Shown piece after piece: positions 5,630 to 63,283 of a DNA stretch of 64,000 nt. A program made the translations under genes and the position numbers. Source of the DNA: Gemmatimonadota bacterium (GTDB lineage Bacteria; Gemmatimonadota; Gemmatimonadetes; Gemmatimonadales; GWC2-71-9); the NCBI GenBank assembly GCA_003220935.1, contig QHTT01000066.1, positions 90,990 through 154,989 on the forward strand. Direction: 5' to 3'. The notes below the pieces were generated by a model that made no database searches, was not told the DNA's origin, and was given only the letters and a program-made list of their open reading frames with translations. How positions within the stretch are numbered: the first letter of the stretch is position 1; the number at the start of each line of letters is the position of its first letter.

Positions 5630-6290
5630 GGCGACCGTTGACCTCACTCCGTTCGGATTCACCCCCACGGAGTCCGTCGTCTATTCGGCTTTGCTGCGGC
5701 TCGGCCCAGCCACGGGATACGGAGTGAGCCGCGCCACGCGGCTCGCCCGCGCCAACGCCTACGCCGCGCTCGCCGGGCTCGTCGACCGCGGGGCGGCGTA
5801 CCGCACCGCCGGCCGCCCCGTGCAGTATCGGCCCACCGATCCCCAAGCGCTGCTCGCTCACCTCGCCGCCCAGCAGGGAGAGGCACTCGACCGGCTGAGT
5901 CGCGCCCTGGAGAACGCGAGCCAGCCAGCGGAGCCCGAAACGCGCGTCGTGGCGGGCGCCCGCGCCGTGGCCAATCTGATTCAGCAGCTGGTCGCGCGGG
6001 CCGACCAGGCGGTCCAGGGGATCCTGGCCGCGGAGCTGTGGCGGCCGACGCTGCCCGCGTGGCGGCGCGCCGCCACCCGGGCGGTGCTCGACGTCCGTCT
6101 GGCGGGCGAGAGCTCCGACACCGAGGGCATCACCAAGAGCGCGGTCCCCGCAGGCACGCCCACGCTGCTGCTGATCGACGACTCCCGCGTGCTGACCGTC
6201 GCGGGGACGGGCGAGCAGATTACGGCGTTGTGGAGCACCCATCCGCTCATCGCGACGCTGGCCCGCGCCGCGCTGCGCACCCTCACCTGA
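5628..6290 (+). CDS. TrmB-family (winged-helix) transcriptional regulator
   Basis: 220 aa. The N-terminal wHTH FGFTPTESVVYSALLRLGPATGYGVSRATRLARANAYAALAGLVDRGA is typical of TrmB-like regulators. Confidence 0.7.
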   Translation: MATVDLTPFGFTPTESVVYSALLRLGPATGYGVSRATRLARANAYAALAGLVDRGAAYRTAGRPVQYRPTDPQALLAHLAAQQGEALDRLSRALENASQPAEPETRVVAGARAVANLIQQLVARADQAVQGILAAELWRPTLPAWRRAATRAVLDVRLAGESSDTEGITKSAVPAGTPTLLLIDDSRVLTVAGTGEQITALWSTHPLIATLARAALRTLT

Positions 6291-55277: not shown

Positions 55278-56030
55278 TCACAGACCGGTAGGATGGTCGA
55301 GGAACGTCCAGGGCAGGCCGAACTTGACGCACAGGTGCTCCGCGAGCGCTTTGACGCCGACGGTCTCCGTCGCGTAATGGCCGGCGTAGAAGACGTTCAC
55401 CCCTAACTCCTCGGCGTCAAAGAAGGTGTGGTGCGCTCCTTCGCCGGTGATGTAGGTGTCGAGCCCCGCCGCCCGGGCCTGGCCGATCATCGAGCCTGCT
55501 CCCCCGGTGACAATGCCCACCCGCCGCACCCGCTCGGGGCCGAACGGCATGACCCGCGGCGGGGCGCCGAGCGCCGCGGCGAGCTTCTGCTGCAGCGCGC
55601 CGCGCGGAGCATCGAGCTCCCCCCACACGCCGATCTGCACGCCGTACTCCTCGCCGAAGCCACCGCGCACCGTGACGCCGAGCTGCCGGGCGAGCACCGC
55701 GTTGTTCCCGACGTCCGGATGTAGATCCAGGGGGAGATGCGCACTGTAGAGCGCGATGTTCTTTTGCAAGAGTCCGGCCACGCGGCGGTACGCAGGGCCG
55801 GTGAGCGGCTTGAGCCCGCCCCAAAACAGCCCGTGATGCACGAGCAGCAGGTCAGCCCCCTGCTCAGCCGCCATCCGCACCGTCGCTTCACACAGGTCGA
55901 CGGCCGCCGCGATGCGCGCGACGTCGCCCGAGTTCGCGACTTGCAGCCCATTGAGCGCGTGGGGCGCGTCGGGCACGTCACGAACGCGCAGGTAGGCGTC
56001 GAGGTAGGTGACCAAATCGGCAAGCTGCAT
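55278..56030 (-). CDS. Nif3-like dinuclear metal centre protein (GTP cyclohydrolase 1 type 2 homologue)
   Basis: 250 aa with motifs NGLQV, LLLVHHGLFW, YSAHLPLD and AGHYATE. Confidence 0.9.
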   Translation of the reverse strand: MQLADLVTYLDAYLRVRDVPDAPHALNGLQVANSGDVARIAAAVDLCEATVRMAAEQGADLLLVHHGLFWGGLKPLTGPAYRRVAGLLQKNIALYSAHLPLDLHPDVGNNAVLARQLGVTVRGGFGEEYGVQIGVWGELDAPRGALQQKLAAALGAPPRVMPFGPERVRRVGIVTGGAGSMIGQARAAGLDTYITGEGAHHTFFDAEELGVNVFYAGHYATETVGVKALAEHLCVKFGLPWTFLDHPTGL

Positions 56031-56143: not shown

Positions 56144-56174
56144 ATCCACACGCGGGAAACGCCCGCGTGTGGAT
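56144..56174 (-). terminator. Strong intrinsic terminator of the parA-parB-M23-bactofilin operon
   Basis: Perfect 13-bp stem ATCCACACGCGGG / CCCGCGTGTGGAT with a 5-nt loop, 13 nt after the bactofilin stop. On the minus strand it is followed by ATTATTTATCTC. Confidence 0.75.
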
Positions 56175-56186
56175 ATCTAGAACGGA

Positions 56187-56597
56187 TCAGTAGGTGCGTT
56201 GCGACCCTGCCTTTTCGACGGTTTCGGGCTCAAGCGTGGTCTCGCCCATCCGCACTACGCCGTTGATCTCACCGCCCTCTTGCACGAGGAGTCGCTTGGC
56301 CGCGATGTCCCCGTGCACCACACACGACGCTTGGATCTCGACGCGCTCGTCGGCGCGGATGCTGCCGCGCACCTCCCCGCCGATGATGGCTTCGCGGGAA
56401 ATCACATCGCCCTCCACTTCCCCGCCCTTGCCCACCAGCACCTGGCGCCCGGCGCGCACCGTGCCGACGACGGTCCCTTCGATCTTCACCACCCCCTCAG
56501 CGGTGATGTCGCCGACGACCCGCATGCCGGTCCCGATGATCGAGAGACCGGTTTCGGTTACCGGGGCGCCGTGTCCCTTCTCGGTGAAGATGGCCAT
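56187..56597 (-). CDS. Bactofilin (polymer-forming cytoskeletal protein, DUF583)
   Basis: 136 aa. Characteristic beta-helix repeats (G.V.G.V....V...G.V.G.V) run throughout. AGGAG SD. Confidence 0.9.
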   Translation of the reverse strand: MAIFTEKGHGAPVTETGLSIIGTGMRVVGDITAEGVVKIEGTVVGTVRAGRQVLVGKGGEVEGDVISREAIIGGEVRGSIRADERVEIQASCVVHGDIAAKRLLVQEGGEINGVVRMGETTLEPETVEKAGSQRTY

Positions 56598-56598
56598 G

Positions 56599-57387
56599 TC
56601 AGTTCTCCTGTCTCACGACCGTAAGGGGATCGAGCGACTTCCCCGCGCGGCGGATTTCGAAATGCAGGTGCGGCGCGGTGGATCGGCCTGAGCTGCCGGA
56701 AAGCGCGATTACCTGCCCCGCTGCGACCGAGTCGCCTTCGCGCGCGACCAAGCGCGATGCGTGTCCATACATGGTCTCATACCCGTCGGTGTGCCGCAAG
56801 AGCACGAACAGCCCGTACGCGGGGTCCGTGCCGGCCTGCGCTACGACGCCGCCGCCGGCGGCGCGCACCGGCGTTCCCGCCGGCACAGCGATGTCGATCC
56901 CGGGGTGGGACTCCGCGGGATCGCCCGGGCGCACTTGTCCACGCGTGACGAAACCACTCATGTCGAGCGGCCAGTGCAGCGGGGTCGCGGAGTCTGGCGC
57001 GAACCGTGGCGGCGCGCCGGGGGCTCGCGCCTGCACGGCTCCCGCGCGCAACAAGTCAGCGGTCACGACGACCTTTTCGGGCGGCGCCTTCACGCCCAGC
57101 AGCTGGCGCAGCTCCTGGTAGTTGGCCTCCGCCCGGTTCAGTGCAGCGGCCAACTGCTGCACGCGGCTGTTCTCCTCCTTGAGGCGCGCGACTTCCCGAT
57201 CGAGCAGCTGCGCGCGAATGGCGTTCCGGGTGATCGGGCCGGCGAACAAGAAGAACAGGACGACCAGGACGGCAATGCCACCCGCCGCCCACTTCCCCAT
57301 TTCGAAGGCCCACAGCGGTACGCGGTATTGGCGGGACTCGAGCTCGCCGTCAGTGTGGACGACGATGGTGACGCTCTTGTCCCTCAT
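56599..57387 (-). CDS. Membrane-anchored M23-family (LytM-type) metallopeptidase with coiled-coil
   Basis: 262 aa with one TM and a coiled-coil. Motifs are HPGIDIA, GYETMYGHAS and STAPHLHFEI. Confidence 0.9.
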   Translation of the reverse strand: MRDKSVTIVVHTDGELESRQYRVPLWAFEMGKWAAGGIAVLVVLFFLFAGPITRNAIRAQLLDREVARLKEENSRVQQLAAALNRAEANYQELRQLLGVKAPPEKVVVTADLLRAGAVQARAPGAPPRFAPDSATPLHWPLDMSGFVTRGQVRPGDPAESHPGIDIAVPAGTPVRAAGGGVVAQAGTDPAYGLFVLLRHTDGYETMYGHASRLVAREGDSVAAGQVIALSGSSGRSTAPHLHFEIRRAGKSLDPLTVVRQEN

Positions 57388-58280
57388 CCGTCGAACGGCG
57401 CTCCGAGGAACAGCTCGAGCAGACGCGCGAGGTCTTCGTTCGAATAGAAGTTGACGTGGATCTGCCCCTTCCCTTTCGCCCGCAAGGTCACGCGCACGTC
57501 GGTACCCAGCCGCCGGCGCAGCGCGTCCTCGATGCGGCGCACTTCCGGTGCCTGACCGAGCCCCTGCTTGAGGCGCGGCCGGCGGACCGGGGCCCGGCCG
57601 CCCCGCACCCGATCCTCGACGTCGCGCACCGAGAGCCCGAGGTCGACGGCTTCCTTGGCGACCGCGGCCACGGCGCGCGGGTCGTCGAGCGCGAGCAGCG
57701 CGCGCGCGTGCCCGACCGAGAGCCGTCCTTCGTGCAGCAGCGCCAGCACGGTCGCCGGCAGCTTGAGGAGCCGGAGTGCGTTGGCGACCGTGGAGCGATC
57801 GCGTCCTACGGCATCGGCCACGTCCTGCTGGGCGAGACTGAACTCGGCGATGAGGCGTTCGTAGCCGCGCGCTTCGTCGACCGGCGAGAGGTCGTCGCGC
57901 TGTAGGTTTTCGATCAGCGCGAGCGTCAGCACCGTGCGGTCGTCCACATCGCGCTTCACGGCCGGGATCCGCTCCCAGCCGAGCGCCTGACAGGCGCGCA
58001 GGCGCCGCTCGCCGGCGATCAGCTCGTAGCCGGCTGGCCGGTCGCGCGGCGCCGCGCGCACCACCACCGGCTGCAGCAGACCGGCTTTCAGAATCGAGGC
58101 CTTGAGCTCGTCCAGCGCTGTCGGGTCGACGTCCCGGCGCGGCTGGTAGGGATTGGGCCGAATGTCGGCGATCGCCAATTCGACGAGACTCCCTTCGCGC
58201 TCCGCTTCCTCGCGCGTCGGTCCCAGCAGGGCCTCGAGCCCCCGACCGAGACGCCGGCGACCAGCGATGGTTTCCGTCAT
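57384..58280 (-). CDS. parB: Chromosome partitioning protein ParB (Spo0J)
   Basis: 298 aa. Motifs are [15 protein letters not shown] and [12 protein letters not shown], with an HTH. ATGA overlap with parA. Confidence 0.95.
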
Positions 58281-59107
58281 GCAGGCACCTCCGGCAGCGG
58301 TTCAGCGGCGGGTGGGGCAGGGGAGAGGGGGGGAGCGGCGCGCTCGACCCGGCGGATCAGCTCCTGCGCCACCGCCAGGTAGCTCTTCGCGCCCACCGAC
58401 TGGACGTCGTACAGCAGAATTGGCTTGCCGAAGCTCGGGGCCTCAGCGAGCCGCACGTTGCGGGGAATGGTGATGCTGAACACCTGCGAGCCGAAGTACT
58501 CCTTCGCCTCCTCGGCCACCTGCTTGCAGAGGTTCAGGCGCGCGTCGAACATCGTCAGCAACACGCCATCGATCGCGAGCGCCGGGTTGAAGTTTCGTTG
58601 CACCAGTTTCACGGTGTTGAGGAGCTGCGAGAGCCCCTCGAGCGCATAGTATTCGCACTGGATCGGGATCAGCACACTGTCCGCCGCCGTGAGCATGTTG
58701 AGCGTGATCAGGCCAAGCGACGGTGGGCAATCGATGATGACGTACTGGTACTGGTCGCGGAGGTCGAGCAGGGCGCGCCGCATCATGGTCTCGCGCGCCT
58801 GTTTGTTCACCAGCTCCAGCTCGGCGCCGACGAGATCCTGGGTGGCCGGCACGACGTCGAGATACGGGAAATGCACATGCGGGAAGCGCGCCTCCGCGAG
58901 CGGCCGGCCGTCGAGCAGCGCATCGTACAGCGAGTGCCGGATGCGGTCGCGTTCGATGCCGACGCCGCTAGTCGAATTCGCCTGCGGGTCGGCGTCGACG
59001 AGCAGCGTCTTGCGCTCGGCAGTGGCGAGCGACGCGGCGACGTTGACCGCGGTCGTGGTCTTGCCGACGCCGCCCTTCTGGTTGGCAATGGCGATGACGC
59101 GCGACAT
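58277..59107 (-). CDS. parA: Chromosome partitioning ATPase ParA (Soj)
   Basis: The deviant Walker [19 protein letters not shown] 59107 preferred; the ORF track uses GTG 59110. A Pro-rich C-terminal tail is present. Confidence 0.95.
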
Positions 59108-59197
59108 CACATAACGTATTGCGTTACAACGAGTTATGTAAGATGACGATCATGAGGGGTCAAATATACGTCGTGGTGCACGGTCGGTAAAGAGTCG

Positions 59198-59211
59198 GTT
59201 TCACGTGAAAC
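59198..59211. other. parS centromere-like site (GTTTCACGTGAAAC)
   Basis: Exact match to the 14-bp core of the conserved parS consensus tGTTTCACGTGAAACa. Confidence 0.9.
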
Positions 59212-59221
59212 TCGCGCCGGA

Positions 59222-59235
59222 GTTTCACGTGAAAC
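59222..59235. other. Second parS site (aGTTTCACGTGAAACa)
   Basis: Exact core match, 24 bp centre-to-centre from the first site. Confidence 0.9.
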
Positions 59236-59273
59236 AATCCGCCCTGCCTCGACTGCCTCACGAAATTAGGGAC

Positions 59274-61272: not shown

Positions 61273-61878
61273 TCATTGCGGAACCACACTCTCGGATCCT
61301 CCTGGGCCATTGAGATTCGTTACCGTTGACTTCCCGTCGGCGGCGACGCCCATCCCAGCACGGGTGACACCATTGCTGTCGGCGAGCGCAAGACTCGCCG
61401 CCTGACGAGCCGTGAGGCCCAACGCGGCCCGGCTTATGCCTTGGCGATCGGCGAATGCCAGCGTGATCGTCTCGTCCGGCAACAGCCCGAGCGCAGCGCG
61501 GGAGCGTCCCTTCTGGTCGATCAGCGTAAGACCCGGCGACCCGTCCCCCAGTACGATCAGCCGGAGCCGCGCATGGCCGCTCTCGTCCTGAAGCACCAAC
61601 TGCGACGCCCCGTTCGTCGCCATGCCGAACACGCCGCGCAGGCGTCCCTTGGCGTCTCGGAGCGCGAAGCTGCGGGCCTGCACCACTTCTCCCGGCGCCG
61701 GCGGTAGCCGCAGCGCCAACGTGACCACGGTCGCGGCCGCGGTCCCCAGAAGGACGGCCAGACCGATTAGCAGAAGTCGGTTTGTTCTCAGCAGCCGACC
61801 GTATGCTCGCTCCACCCGCTCGAGGCGTCGCAGCATGGCCTCAGGGATAGGCTCGTGTACTTCCTGGCTATCGCTCAT
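61273..61878 (-). CDS. Membrane-anchored hypothetical protein with five tandem 23-residue repeats
   Basis: 201 aa from ATG 61878, with a GGAGGAG SD, one TM (LLLIGLAVLLGTAAATVVTLAL), then repeats of the form .L.L.D..G..RA.LGL. Confidence 0.7.
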   Translation of the reverse strand: MSDSQEVHEPIPEAMLRRLERVERAYGRLLRTNRLLLIGLAVLLGTAAATVVTLALRLPPAPGEVVQARSFALRDAKGRLRGVFGMATNGASQLVLQDESGHARLRLIVLGDGSPGLTLIDQKGRSRAALGLLPDETITLAFADRQGISRAALGLTARQAASLALADSNGVTRAGMGVAADGKSTVTNLNGPGGSESVVPQ

Positions 61879-61910
61879 TGCTCCTCCGGCCTGGTGGGCG
61901 CTTCGAACAG

Positions 61911-62357
61911 TCACGCCCGGTGTAAGGAATTCGCTCGACGCGTCATCGCGGCAGCGCGTTCCACGCCCGTTGCCGGCCCGCCCGCGCCCTGCGGCCGCCC
62001 GGCGAGAGAGTGCCAGGCGAGCGTATCCCCTTCGCGCGTTCCGGTCATGGCGAGCGTGCCCACTGGAAGCTCGAGGGCATACGCGGCCGCCTTGTGCCAG
62101 CGGGAATAGCGGCTTGGGGCGAGGCGCTGATACAGGGCGACGACGGCGCCCCCCCCATCCACGAACGCGACGTCCACGGGGTACGACAGGCCAAACGTGT
62201 GCACGGCACGGCAGGGTGTCAGCAGCAAACCGGCCCCGACGACGAGTGGTGGACGGCCCAGCAGCCCTCGGAGCCGTAGCCACCAACGGTCCGCCACGGC
62301 GATCCGCGTCCCCAGGACGCGCCCGCGCGTGACGTTCGTAAGCCGCGCATAGCTCAT
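61911..62357 (-). CDS. DUF192 domain-containing protein
   Basis: 148 aa. WWLRLRGLLGR...GLLLTPCRAVHTFGLSYPVDVAFVD...ALELPVG follows the DUF192 pattern. ATGA overlap with tadC. Confidence 0.8.
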   Translation of the reverse strand: MSYARLTNVTRGRVLGTRIAVADRWWLRLRGLLGRPPLVVGAGLLLTPCRAVHTFGLSYPVDVAFVDGGGAVVALYQRLAPSRYSRWHKAAAYALELPVGTLAMTGTREGDTLAWHSLAGRPQGAGGPATGVERAAAMTRRANSLHRA

Positions 62358-63283
62358 CGGACAAACTCGTTCAGCGTCCGGTAGATGGTGATCAGGGCGG
62401 GCCCCAGGATCACGACGAACAACGCCGGCAGCACGAACAGCACGAGCGGAAAAATGAGCTTGATGGTCGTCTTGGCGGCGGCTTCCTCGGCCCGCTGGCG
62501 TCGCTTGGTCCGCACCGTGTCGGAGTGTACCCGGAGTGCCTGGGCGACGGACGTGCCGAAGCGATCGGTCTGAATCAGCATCGCGACGAGCGACCGCACA
62601 TCCGGGATCCCGGTGCGCTCGCCCAACCCCCGCAGCGCCTCGTCCCGTGGCACGCCTGCGCGAATCTCGAGGTTAACGGCCATGAGCTCCTCACCCGTCA
62701 GCCTGCTCAGCCGTTTGATCTCGTCGGAAACGCGCACCAGCGCCTGGTTGAGGGCCAGCCCCGCCTCGACACAGACCACCAGCAGGTCGAGCGCATCCGG
62801 CAGCGCCCGCTGGATCTCCTTCTGGCGCGCCCTGGCCCGCTTCCCCACGTAGAGTGTCGGCGCCACCCACCCCAGCACCGCGCCCCAGACTGCCACGAGC
62901 ATGGCTCCGACCACGCCCCCACCAAGCATCGGCGTCACGAGCAACCCCGCGACACCCAGCGAGGCCATGAGGCCCAGTCGAGCGCCCCAGTAGATCGCCA
63001 GGGCGTTCGGGTACCGGTATCCCGCGTGACTGAGGAGGTGGCGCGCCGCGGTCCGGTCACCTTTCGCCAAGCCTCCGCCCAGCCGCTCGACTAGAGCCCC
63101 GAGCCGTGCGGCTCGCTCCTGGCGACGGTGCCGCTCTAGTTGCGCGTCTTGCTCGCTCACCCTTTGCTCGAGCTCGGATAACCGACGGTCCACCGCGCGT
63201 GGTCGGGCGGGCACGAGCCGTCCGGCCAGGGCGACGATCAGCGCCACGGAAGTCGCAAGCACGGCAGTCGCGAAGTAAATCAC
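62354..63283 (-). CDS. tadC: Type II secretion system F-family protein (Tad pilus TadC)
   Basis: 309 aa. T2SSF domain LPDALDLLVVCVEAGLALNQAL...FGTSVAQALRVHSD plus a terminal TM. GTG start. Confidence 0.88.
   Translation of the reverse strand: MIYFATAVLATSVALIVALAGRLVPARPRAVDRRLSELEQRVSEQDAQLERHRRQERAARLGALVERLGGGLAKGDRTAARHLLSHAGYRYPNALAIYWGARLGLMASLGVAGLLVTPMLGGGVVGAMLVAVWGAVLGWVAPTLYVGKRARARQKEIQRALPDALDLLVVCVEAGLALNQALVRVSDEIKRLSRLTGEELMAVNLEIRAGVPRDEALRGLGERTGIPDVRSLVAMLIQTDRFGTSVAQALRVHSDTVRTKRRQRAEEAAAKTTIKLIFPLVLFVLPALFVVILGPALITIYRTLNEFVR

Follow-up and report, generated by a model that had tools for sequence, protein, structure and literature searches.

Why would a bacterium carry the genes for chromosome segregation in a single operon with the genes for an M23 peptidase and a bactofilin? 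The question is raised by a stretch of 64,000 nucleotides (nt) from an uncultured Gemmatimonadota bacterium of the order Gemmatimonadales (assembly GCA_003220935.1, contig QHTT01000066.1, positions 90,990 to 154,989; G+C ~69%), termed here the window, for which an earlier note had described parS sites, parA, parB, an M23 peptidase gene and a bactofilin gene in one tight row and had suggested that chromosome anchoring and local wall remodelling are coordinated. Here we show that the genetic linkage of parAB with the M23-bactofilin pair is real and under selection, and we propose, with a confidence a little better than even, that the locus is one polycistronic unit holding two separate machines that are coupled through expression rather than necessarily through physical contact.

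All four genes lie on the minus strand, and from 59236 down to 56144 the order is two parS sites, a promoter-like site, parA, parB, the M23 gene, the bactofilin gene and a terminator (Table 1). As read from the sequence, the parA/parB and parB/M23 junctions are both ATGA overlaps and therefore leave no space for an intergenic promoter, and the M23 and bactofilin genes meet as TGA-C-ATG, with a gap of 1 nt and an AGGAG located 8 nt 5′ of the bactofilin ATG, just as the earlier note had described them. Its two upstream parS sites and strong downstream terminator are also borne out, with the correction that the first parS ends at 59236 and not at 59235. The terminator has a folding energy of -27.1 kcal/mol (z = -6.45), and none of 200 shuffled sequences folded equally well. 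A consensus scan found no promoter-like or terminator-like site within the four genes, and the single promoter-like site with parS at one side and the single strong terminator at the other are consistent with one compact unit, the genes of which are probably co-transcribed.

Conservation of this arrangement was surveyed by a genome scan with one genome per GTDB species, for which M23 relatives, full-length but distant, were aligned as the query, and the first sequence of this alignment was chosen far from the M23 protein of the window. The best 80 of at least 598 matches were taken, 83 loci were annotated by phmmer against six window proteins, and taxon labels are those of the depositors. Among these loci, parB lies directly upstream of the M23 gene in 74 of the 78 with at least 1 kb of upstream sequence, and the bactofilin gene lies directly downstream in 80 of the 81 with enough downstream sequence. 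The median gaps (71-82 loci) are -4 nt for parA-parB, -1 nt for parB-M23 and 3.5 nt for M23-bactofilin; for parB-M23, 36 of 77 loci have a value of exactly -4. The four-gene order was found in 59 loci from Gemmatimonadota, in Zixibacteria (L015, L020, L024, L032, L076, L078), Krumholzibacteriia (L006, L012), FCPU426 (L033), Chitinivibrionales of the phylum Fibrobacterota (L055), “Ignavibacteriales” (L025), bacterium HR33 (L031) and four loci of further bins; three of the lineages with parAB attachment belong to the FCB group according to NCBI, and two are unplaced candidate phyla. The best 120 matches to the M23 protein of the window, and those to a profile of its distant relatives, were all from Gemmatimonadales or Longimicrobiales, and other phyla were reached solely by the genome scan with the re-ordered alignment. 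The closest M23 homologues, at most 94% identical, come from Gemmatimonadales metagenome bins, and three homologue loci (one Gemmatimonadales-like and two Longimicrobiales-like) all read (yidC-trmE-)mnmG-parA-parB-M23-bactofilin-Nif3. The earlier note had allowed that the arrangement might prove sporadic among relatives. It is instead shared by five or more lineages of phylum rank, in most cases with genes that overlap or abut, and given the proportions above the linkage is therefore real and under selection.

The M23-bactofilin pair also occurs without parAB in four of the related loci, namely a Lac Pavin bin (cytochrome and asd genes upstream), Goldbacteria (L069; phosphatase and nuclease genes), Eisenbacteria (L080, 4956-6302; ispD) and a “Gemmatimonadetes” bin (L066, 2114-3441; ispF). 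Because the pair is nearly constant across the loci, also away from parAB, it is the near-invariant core, to which parAB is joined in a set of lineages that have conserved this attachment. L066 and L080, both with isoprenoid genes upstream, have much alike M23 and bactofilin N-termini (MP.(K/R)(S/H)YSIIVAPSDGS.. and MFGKD.K(D/E)R, respectively); L066 may be mislabelled through faulty binning, or this genome may have a second paralogous pair. The label of L025 (“uncultured Ignavibacteriales”) may be unreliable as well, and its M23, bactofilin and ParB termini are near-identical in pattern to those of Zixibacteria L024, L076, L078 and L083. The sole locus without a detectable bactofilin 3′ of M23 is L013, where the M23 match is truncated at the N-terminus and a 133-amino-acid open reading frame (ORF; 5768-6169) without any Pfam hit takes this place.

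Table 1. Features of the parS-parA-parB-M23-bactofilin locus and its neighbours (positions in the window)
Feature	Position	Strand	Basis or remark
parS site 1	59221..59236		TGTTTCACGTGAAACT on minus strand; 1 mismatch to consensus TGTTTCACGTGAAACA
parS site 2	59197..59212		2 mismatches to consensus TGTTTCACGTGAAACA; ends 5 nt 5′ of -35-like hexamer
Sigma-70-like promoter TTTACC-17-TATATT	59163..59191	-	Consensus match
AT-rich conserved leader (ATAAC..ATTGT ... GTTAT)	59108..59140	-	Just 5′ of parA start; spacer alignment
parA	58277..59110 (59107 = likelier start)	-	Pfam AAA_31 E=1e-64
parB	57384..58280	-	Pfam ParB_N + HTH_ParB + ParB_C
M23 peptidase gene	56599..57387	-	Pfam Peptidase_M23 E=3e-33
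Bactofilin gene	56187..56597	-	PF04519 E=4e-23
Intrinsic terminator	56144..56174	-	13-bp stem, 5-nt loop, T-rich tail TATTTAT
mnmG	61142-59274		5′ neighbour of the unit
Nif3/DUF34 gene	55278-56030	-	Past the terminator
148-amino-acid ORF	61911-62357	-	NCBIfam PRK03760 (hypothetical protein), weak, E=1e-11
363-amino-acid ORF	61273-62364		No family match

The four encoded proteins look intact, each canonical for its family, and the segregation half of the unit has the features of a canonical chromosomal ParABS system. ParA is a Soj-type ATPase with the deviant Walker A motif KGGVGKTT at residue 12 and matches to AAA_31 and to CbiA (E=1e-28), in agreement with the KGGxGK[ST] signature and Soj/ParA fold of its family. 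ParB carries the GERRLR motif of the CTPase domain (GERRxR) at residue 90, a helix-turn-helix region, a C-terminal dimerisation domain and the N-terminal ParA-contact peptide LGRGLEALL. The parS sites (tGTTNCACGTGAAACa) lie near the par genes and are kept in relatives; they are the only two matches in the window, where 0.04 are expected, and two or more were obtained in none of 100 shuffles.

The spacer between mnmG and parA was aligned for the window and 12 close relatives (L001, L017, L037-L039, L041, L045, L064, L068, L070, L075, L081). TATATT is invariant in these 13 sequences, the -35 hexamer is CTTTAC-like, and a parS edge lies ~5 nt 5′ of the -35 in all 13. The second parS is found either 24 bp farther upstream, as in the window, or inside the promoter spacer, as in L038, L064 and L070, where the full parS core GTTTCACGTGAAAC ends 5 nt before TATATT; this position argues for mutual interference between the binding of ParB and the start of transcription at the promoter of its own operon. 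From this arrangement of parS and promoter, ParB control of the entire operon is plausible.

Although the ORF list begins parA at the GTG at 59110, the ATG at 59107 (ATGTCGCGCGTCATC, MSRVI...) is kept in all 12 aligned relatives, and with this conserved start (ATGTCNCGNGT) in the spacer alignment we place the more likely true start of parA there. The conserved leader in front of it has no Shine-Dalgarno sequence. Between the -10 and the parA start (59102-59162) the window holds a partial inverted repeat, ACATAAC-N17-GTTATGT, and RNAalifold on the 13 leader sequences gave no consensus pairs, so that an RNA structure was dropped from consideration; the leader, which reads ATATAAC.CATTGT ... GTTAT over the aligned sequences, might serve as an operator on the DNA or enhance translation.

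What, then, are the other two genes predicted to do? The M23 protein (262 amino acids) keeps all zinc-binding and catalytic residues in the HxxxD, H and HxH motifs (H161/D165, H209 and H240/H242), a point that the earlier note had left to be checked, and its M23 domain aligns over the full length with the active M23 enzymes NMB0315/NGO1686. In an AlphaFold model (35 homologues, mean pLDDT 80), two strands (5-11 and 18-24) form an N-terminal beta-hairpin (residues 5-24), from which a helix (25-97) runs on, followed by a disordered linker and the M23 domain (137-258), the best structural matches of which are ShyA, Csd1 (5j1l), the LytM domain of EnvC and NMB0315. The most hydrophobic 19-mer (residues 34-52) lies inside this helix and is predicted to be its transmembrane part, with a coiled coil continuing to ~97. 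The model thus has a cytoplasmic N-terminal tail, one transmembrane helix, a periplasmic coiled coil and a C-terminal M23 domain, an arrangement already described for LmdC. In Hyphomonas and Rhodospirillum this DD-endopeptidase is recruited by a bactofilin, BacA being bound by the cytoplasmic part of LmdC, residues 1-38 (PMC10945521), and by comparison with that description we assign the protein of the window as a predicted LmdC-like bitopic M23 peptidase.

The hairpin carries a motif, h-h-h-V-P-x-D/G ... R-x-F/Y-R-h-S, that is common to Gemmatimonadota, Zixibacteria, Krumholzibacteria, FCPU426 and Chitinivibrionales (TIVVHTDGELESRQYRV in the window, LTLIVVPHGDLETRSF.VSYR in Longimicrobiales and FSVIVVPHDDSRMRNYRFSY in Krumholzibacteria-like bins). 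Since it also persists where parAB is absent, in three of four such loci with the Goldbacteria locus as the exception, and since a bactofilin gene adjoins the M23 gene almost everywhere, the partner of this cytoplasmic tail would most simply be the bactofilin and not ParA or ParB. The bactofilin itself has 136 amino acids, of which residues 19-115 form the PF04519 core and align with positions 1-97 of the 98-position profile; it matches Caulobacter BacA (2n3d) and Thermus TtBac (6ria), and its tails are short, with one of ~20 amino acids.

Taken together, we favour a unit in which a canonical ParABS and a wall module are expressed side by side. The two parS sites, which directly adjoin the promoter of the operon, would be the loading sites of ParB, and the resulting ParB-parS complex would be moved by ParA. 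The bactofilin would polymerise under the inner membrane and bind the beta-hairpin tail of the single-pass M23 endopeptidase, which would confine the cleavage of peptidoglycan cross-links to a defined zone. The coupling between both modules may come from the common promoter, which is probably sensitive to ParB occupancy, from the shared origin-proximal gene dosage and timing, and from translational coupling through the overlapping stop and start codons. By analogy to BacM of Myxococcus xanthus, whose role lies in cell shape and which segregation can do without (PMC5703909; PMC3899335), the wall module would shape the cell and not be required for segregation.

Several points weigh against this interpretation. 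Gene order kept over several phylum-level lineages exceeds the norm for functionally unrelated genes and therefore leaves room for a direct functional link. The N-terminus of the bactofilin (MAIFTEKG) resembles only loosely the membrane-targeting consensus MFSKKKK (PMC12448750); those of relatives read MFGKEGD, MFSRPAQ or MIKK... The scans for promoters and terminators yield matches to a consensus only. The survey was also restricted to the M23 orthogroup nearest to the query and is no unbiased census.

If a direct link exists, it could be physical or spatial. This would make the bactofilin polymer a landmark that places ParB-parS or sequesters ParA, like BacNOP-PadC, PopZ or DivIVA, with the origin held at the same part of the envelope in which wall remodelling by the M23 enzyme takes place; we consider this possible but doubtful. 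The overlapping or abutting four-gene order in Gemmatimonadota, Zixibacteria, Krumholzibacteria, FCPU426 and Chitinivibrionales speaks for it, as do the ability of some bactofilins to organise ParABS in Myxococcus and the bactofilin genes 3′ of parAB in Myxococcus and Bdellovibrio. The earlier note had argued that bactofilins scaffold ParABS in Myxococcus, which holds for BacNOP, the bactofilins that together with the adaptor PadC link ParA and ParB-parS and are encoded away from parAB, but not for BacM, whose gene is co-transcribed with parAB (PMC5703909; PMC3899335). The BacNOP system needs the ParB-like PadC, encoded with the bactofilins, and three paralogous bactofilins, one with a long C-terminal extension. 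Neither is present here: the operon's ParB is the only ParB homologue in the window, with no second, PadC-like one, and the single bactofilin has short tails, so that a scaffold role for it is unsupported. A lineage-specific conserved extension of ParA or ParB was considered as a bactofilin contact and dropped, the C-terminal tail of ParA being variable and ParB canonical. Two database entries from outside the window that look like ParB-M23 fusions were also discarded. In P0110 (446 amino acids) ParB residues 1-~200 are abruptly joined to M23 residue ~13, an internal deletion junction, and in P0007 (436 amino acids) 22 ParB residues are followed by frameshifted junk and then M23, a frameshifted read-through across the ATGA overlap; each is a single sequence with an aberrant junction and therefore probably an assembly or gene-calling artefact. 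Finally, the pair is found apart from parAB in Goldbacteria, Eisenbacteria and others as well as in Thermus, and the coordination of origin anchoring with wall remodelling, as had been suggested, remains an inference that these findings do not support.

A further step along the same line, to which we give slightly less credence again, is that bactofilin and M23 form a genuine third component of the segregation apparatus in Gemmatimonadota, Zixibacteria, Krumholzibacteria, FCPU426 and Chitinivibrionia, expressed from a ParB/parS-controlled promoter, with the bactofilin marking the envelope zone of both origin parking and wall cutting.

Less probable still is a division-linked hydrolase, in which the M23-bactofilin pair would act in septal or division-site processing and be co-expressed with ParAB to time or place cleavage in lineages lacking Min, MipZ and PomZ. 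The phylum suggests this idea: Gemmatimonadota, named for their bud-like but inert polar appendages, place their divisions at 1/2, 1/3 or 1/4 of the cell length and have no genes for Min, MipZ or PomZ (PMC11271474), and the hint in the earlier note that the organism might bud or grow at the pole fits this membership. M23/LytM division factors such as EnvC and DipM are also structural neighbours of the M23 domain. The architecture is nevertheless of LmdC type rather than of the EnvC/FtsEX-associated or LysM-bearing DipM/NlpD type, and the catalytic residues are intact, unlike those of the degenerate activators EnvC and NlpD.

That the M23-bactofilin genes are an independent transcription unit merely lying beside parAB, or chance ORFs of a GC-rich genome, is very improbable even with internal promoters sought by consensus in a phylum whose promoters are uncharacterised, as the Pfam matches are strong, the ATGA overlaps leave no promoter space and both the gene order (74 of 78 loci) and the exact 4-nt parB-M23 overlap (36 of 77) recur; chance adjacency is effectively excluded.

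The genomic surroundings are as follows. Here parA is directly downstream of mnmG, and relatives read yidC-trmE-mnmG-parA; neither dnaA nor oriC was located within the window. In bacteria rsmG (gidB) commonly lies between mnmG and parA, and it is absent from this interval (59111-59273) and likewise from the related loci; two Longimicrobiales loci (L002, L003) have one or two small opposite-strand ORFs there instead. Past the terminator lie the Nif3/DUF34 gene and an MFS transporter gene. The former is found 3′ of the bactofilin gene in most Gemmatimonadota loci and is absent from those of Zixibacteria, Krumholzibacteria, FCPU426 and Chitinivibrionales. On the 5′ side of mnmG the 148- and 363-amino-acid ORFs overlap, and the gene calls there are therefore uncertain; NCBIfam gave no family-level name for these ORFs or for the bactofilin.

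As to what is new, the pairing of bactofilin with M23, bactofilins that organise ParABS and bactofilin genes that follow parAB in Myxococcus and Bdellovibrio are already published. The joining of both modules in one parS-fronted operon, kept in Gemmatimonadota plus four or more further lineages of phylum rank, is new; in the literature, including papers that treat bactofilin, M23 and ParB together, we found no description of this operon or its conservation, nor a publication linking bactofilins to Gemmatimonadota. Nothing here demonstrates a new mechanism. If co-expression is all there is, what remains is a neat finding on annotation and synteny, and its importance is modest. The third-component idea, if true, could explain both the fractional division planes without Min, MipZ or PomZ and the origin of the inert polar “buds”. 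None of the lineages with the four-gene unit has a cell-biology model, and the locus yields a specific and inexpensive hypothesis about a cell cycle that is poorly understood in several candidate phyla and puzzling in Gemmatimonadota, a phylum with such appendages and division sites and no known division-site system (PMC11271474).

Among known systems, the nearest in protein architecture is LmdC-BacA of Hyphomonas neptunium and Rhodospirillum rubrum, where the bactofilin gene adjoins that of a bitopic, catalytically intact M23 endopeptidase; the pair described here differs in being embedded in a parAB operon behind parS, and parAB is unmentioned in that study (PMC10945521). Gemmatimonadota are missing from its list of 226 species, and most of the M23-bactofilin pairs lie mid-chromosome with a few near record ends, e.g., Halothermothrix orenii and Leptospira interrogans (Pohl et al. 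2024, PMC10945521). An attempt to infer parAB adjacency from the coordinates of this supplement was given up, adjacency being not readable from coordinates alone. Thermus thermophilus (L084) also has adjoining M23 and bactofilin (TtBac) genes with a 1-nt gap, but its neighbours there are accD/accA and a gene for pyrimidine-nucleoside phosphorylase, without parAB. The M23 gene csd1 adjoins the bactofilin gene ccmA in Helicobacter pylori too, and Csd1 is among the top structural matches, but Csd1 acts with Csd2, Csd5 and Csd7 in a helical-shape complex. To our knowledge Csd1-CcmA has no link to parAB, and we know of no Csd2-, Csd5- or Csd7-like partner of the present unit.

From the segregation side, the bactofilin gene bd3904 of Bdellovibrio bacteriovorus lies directly 3′ of parB near two parS sites, and the figure legend that shows this reports no M23 gene (PMC10547168). 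In M. xanthus, which provides the closest precedent, parA-parB-bacM-MXAN_7474 are co-transcribed (PMC3899335), so that a bactofilin gene again follows chromosomal parAB in one transcript, though the order is parB-bactofilin-lipoprotein and no M23 gene is interposed. Set beside these two cases, the parS-parA-parB-M23-bactofilin unit offers a natural test of whether bactofilin genes placed after parAB, such as bacM and bd3904, reflect a functional connection or just shared regulation.

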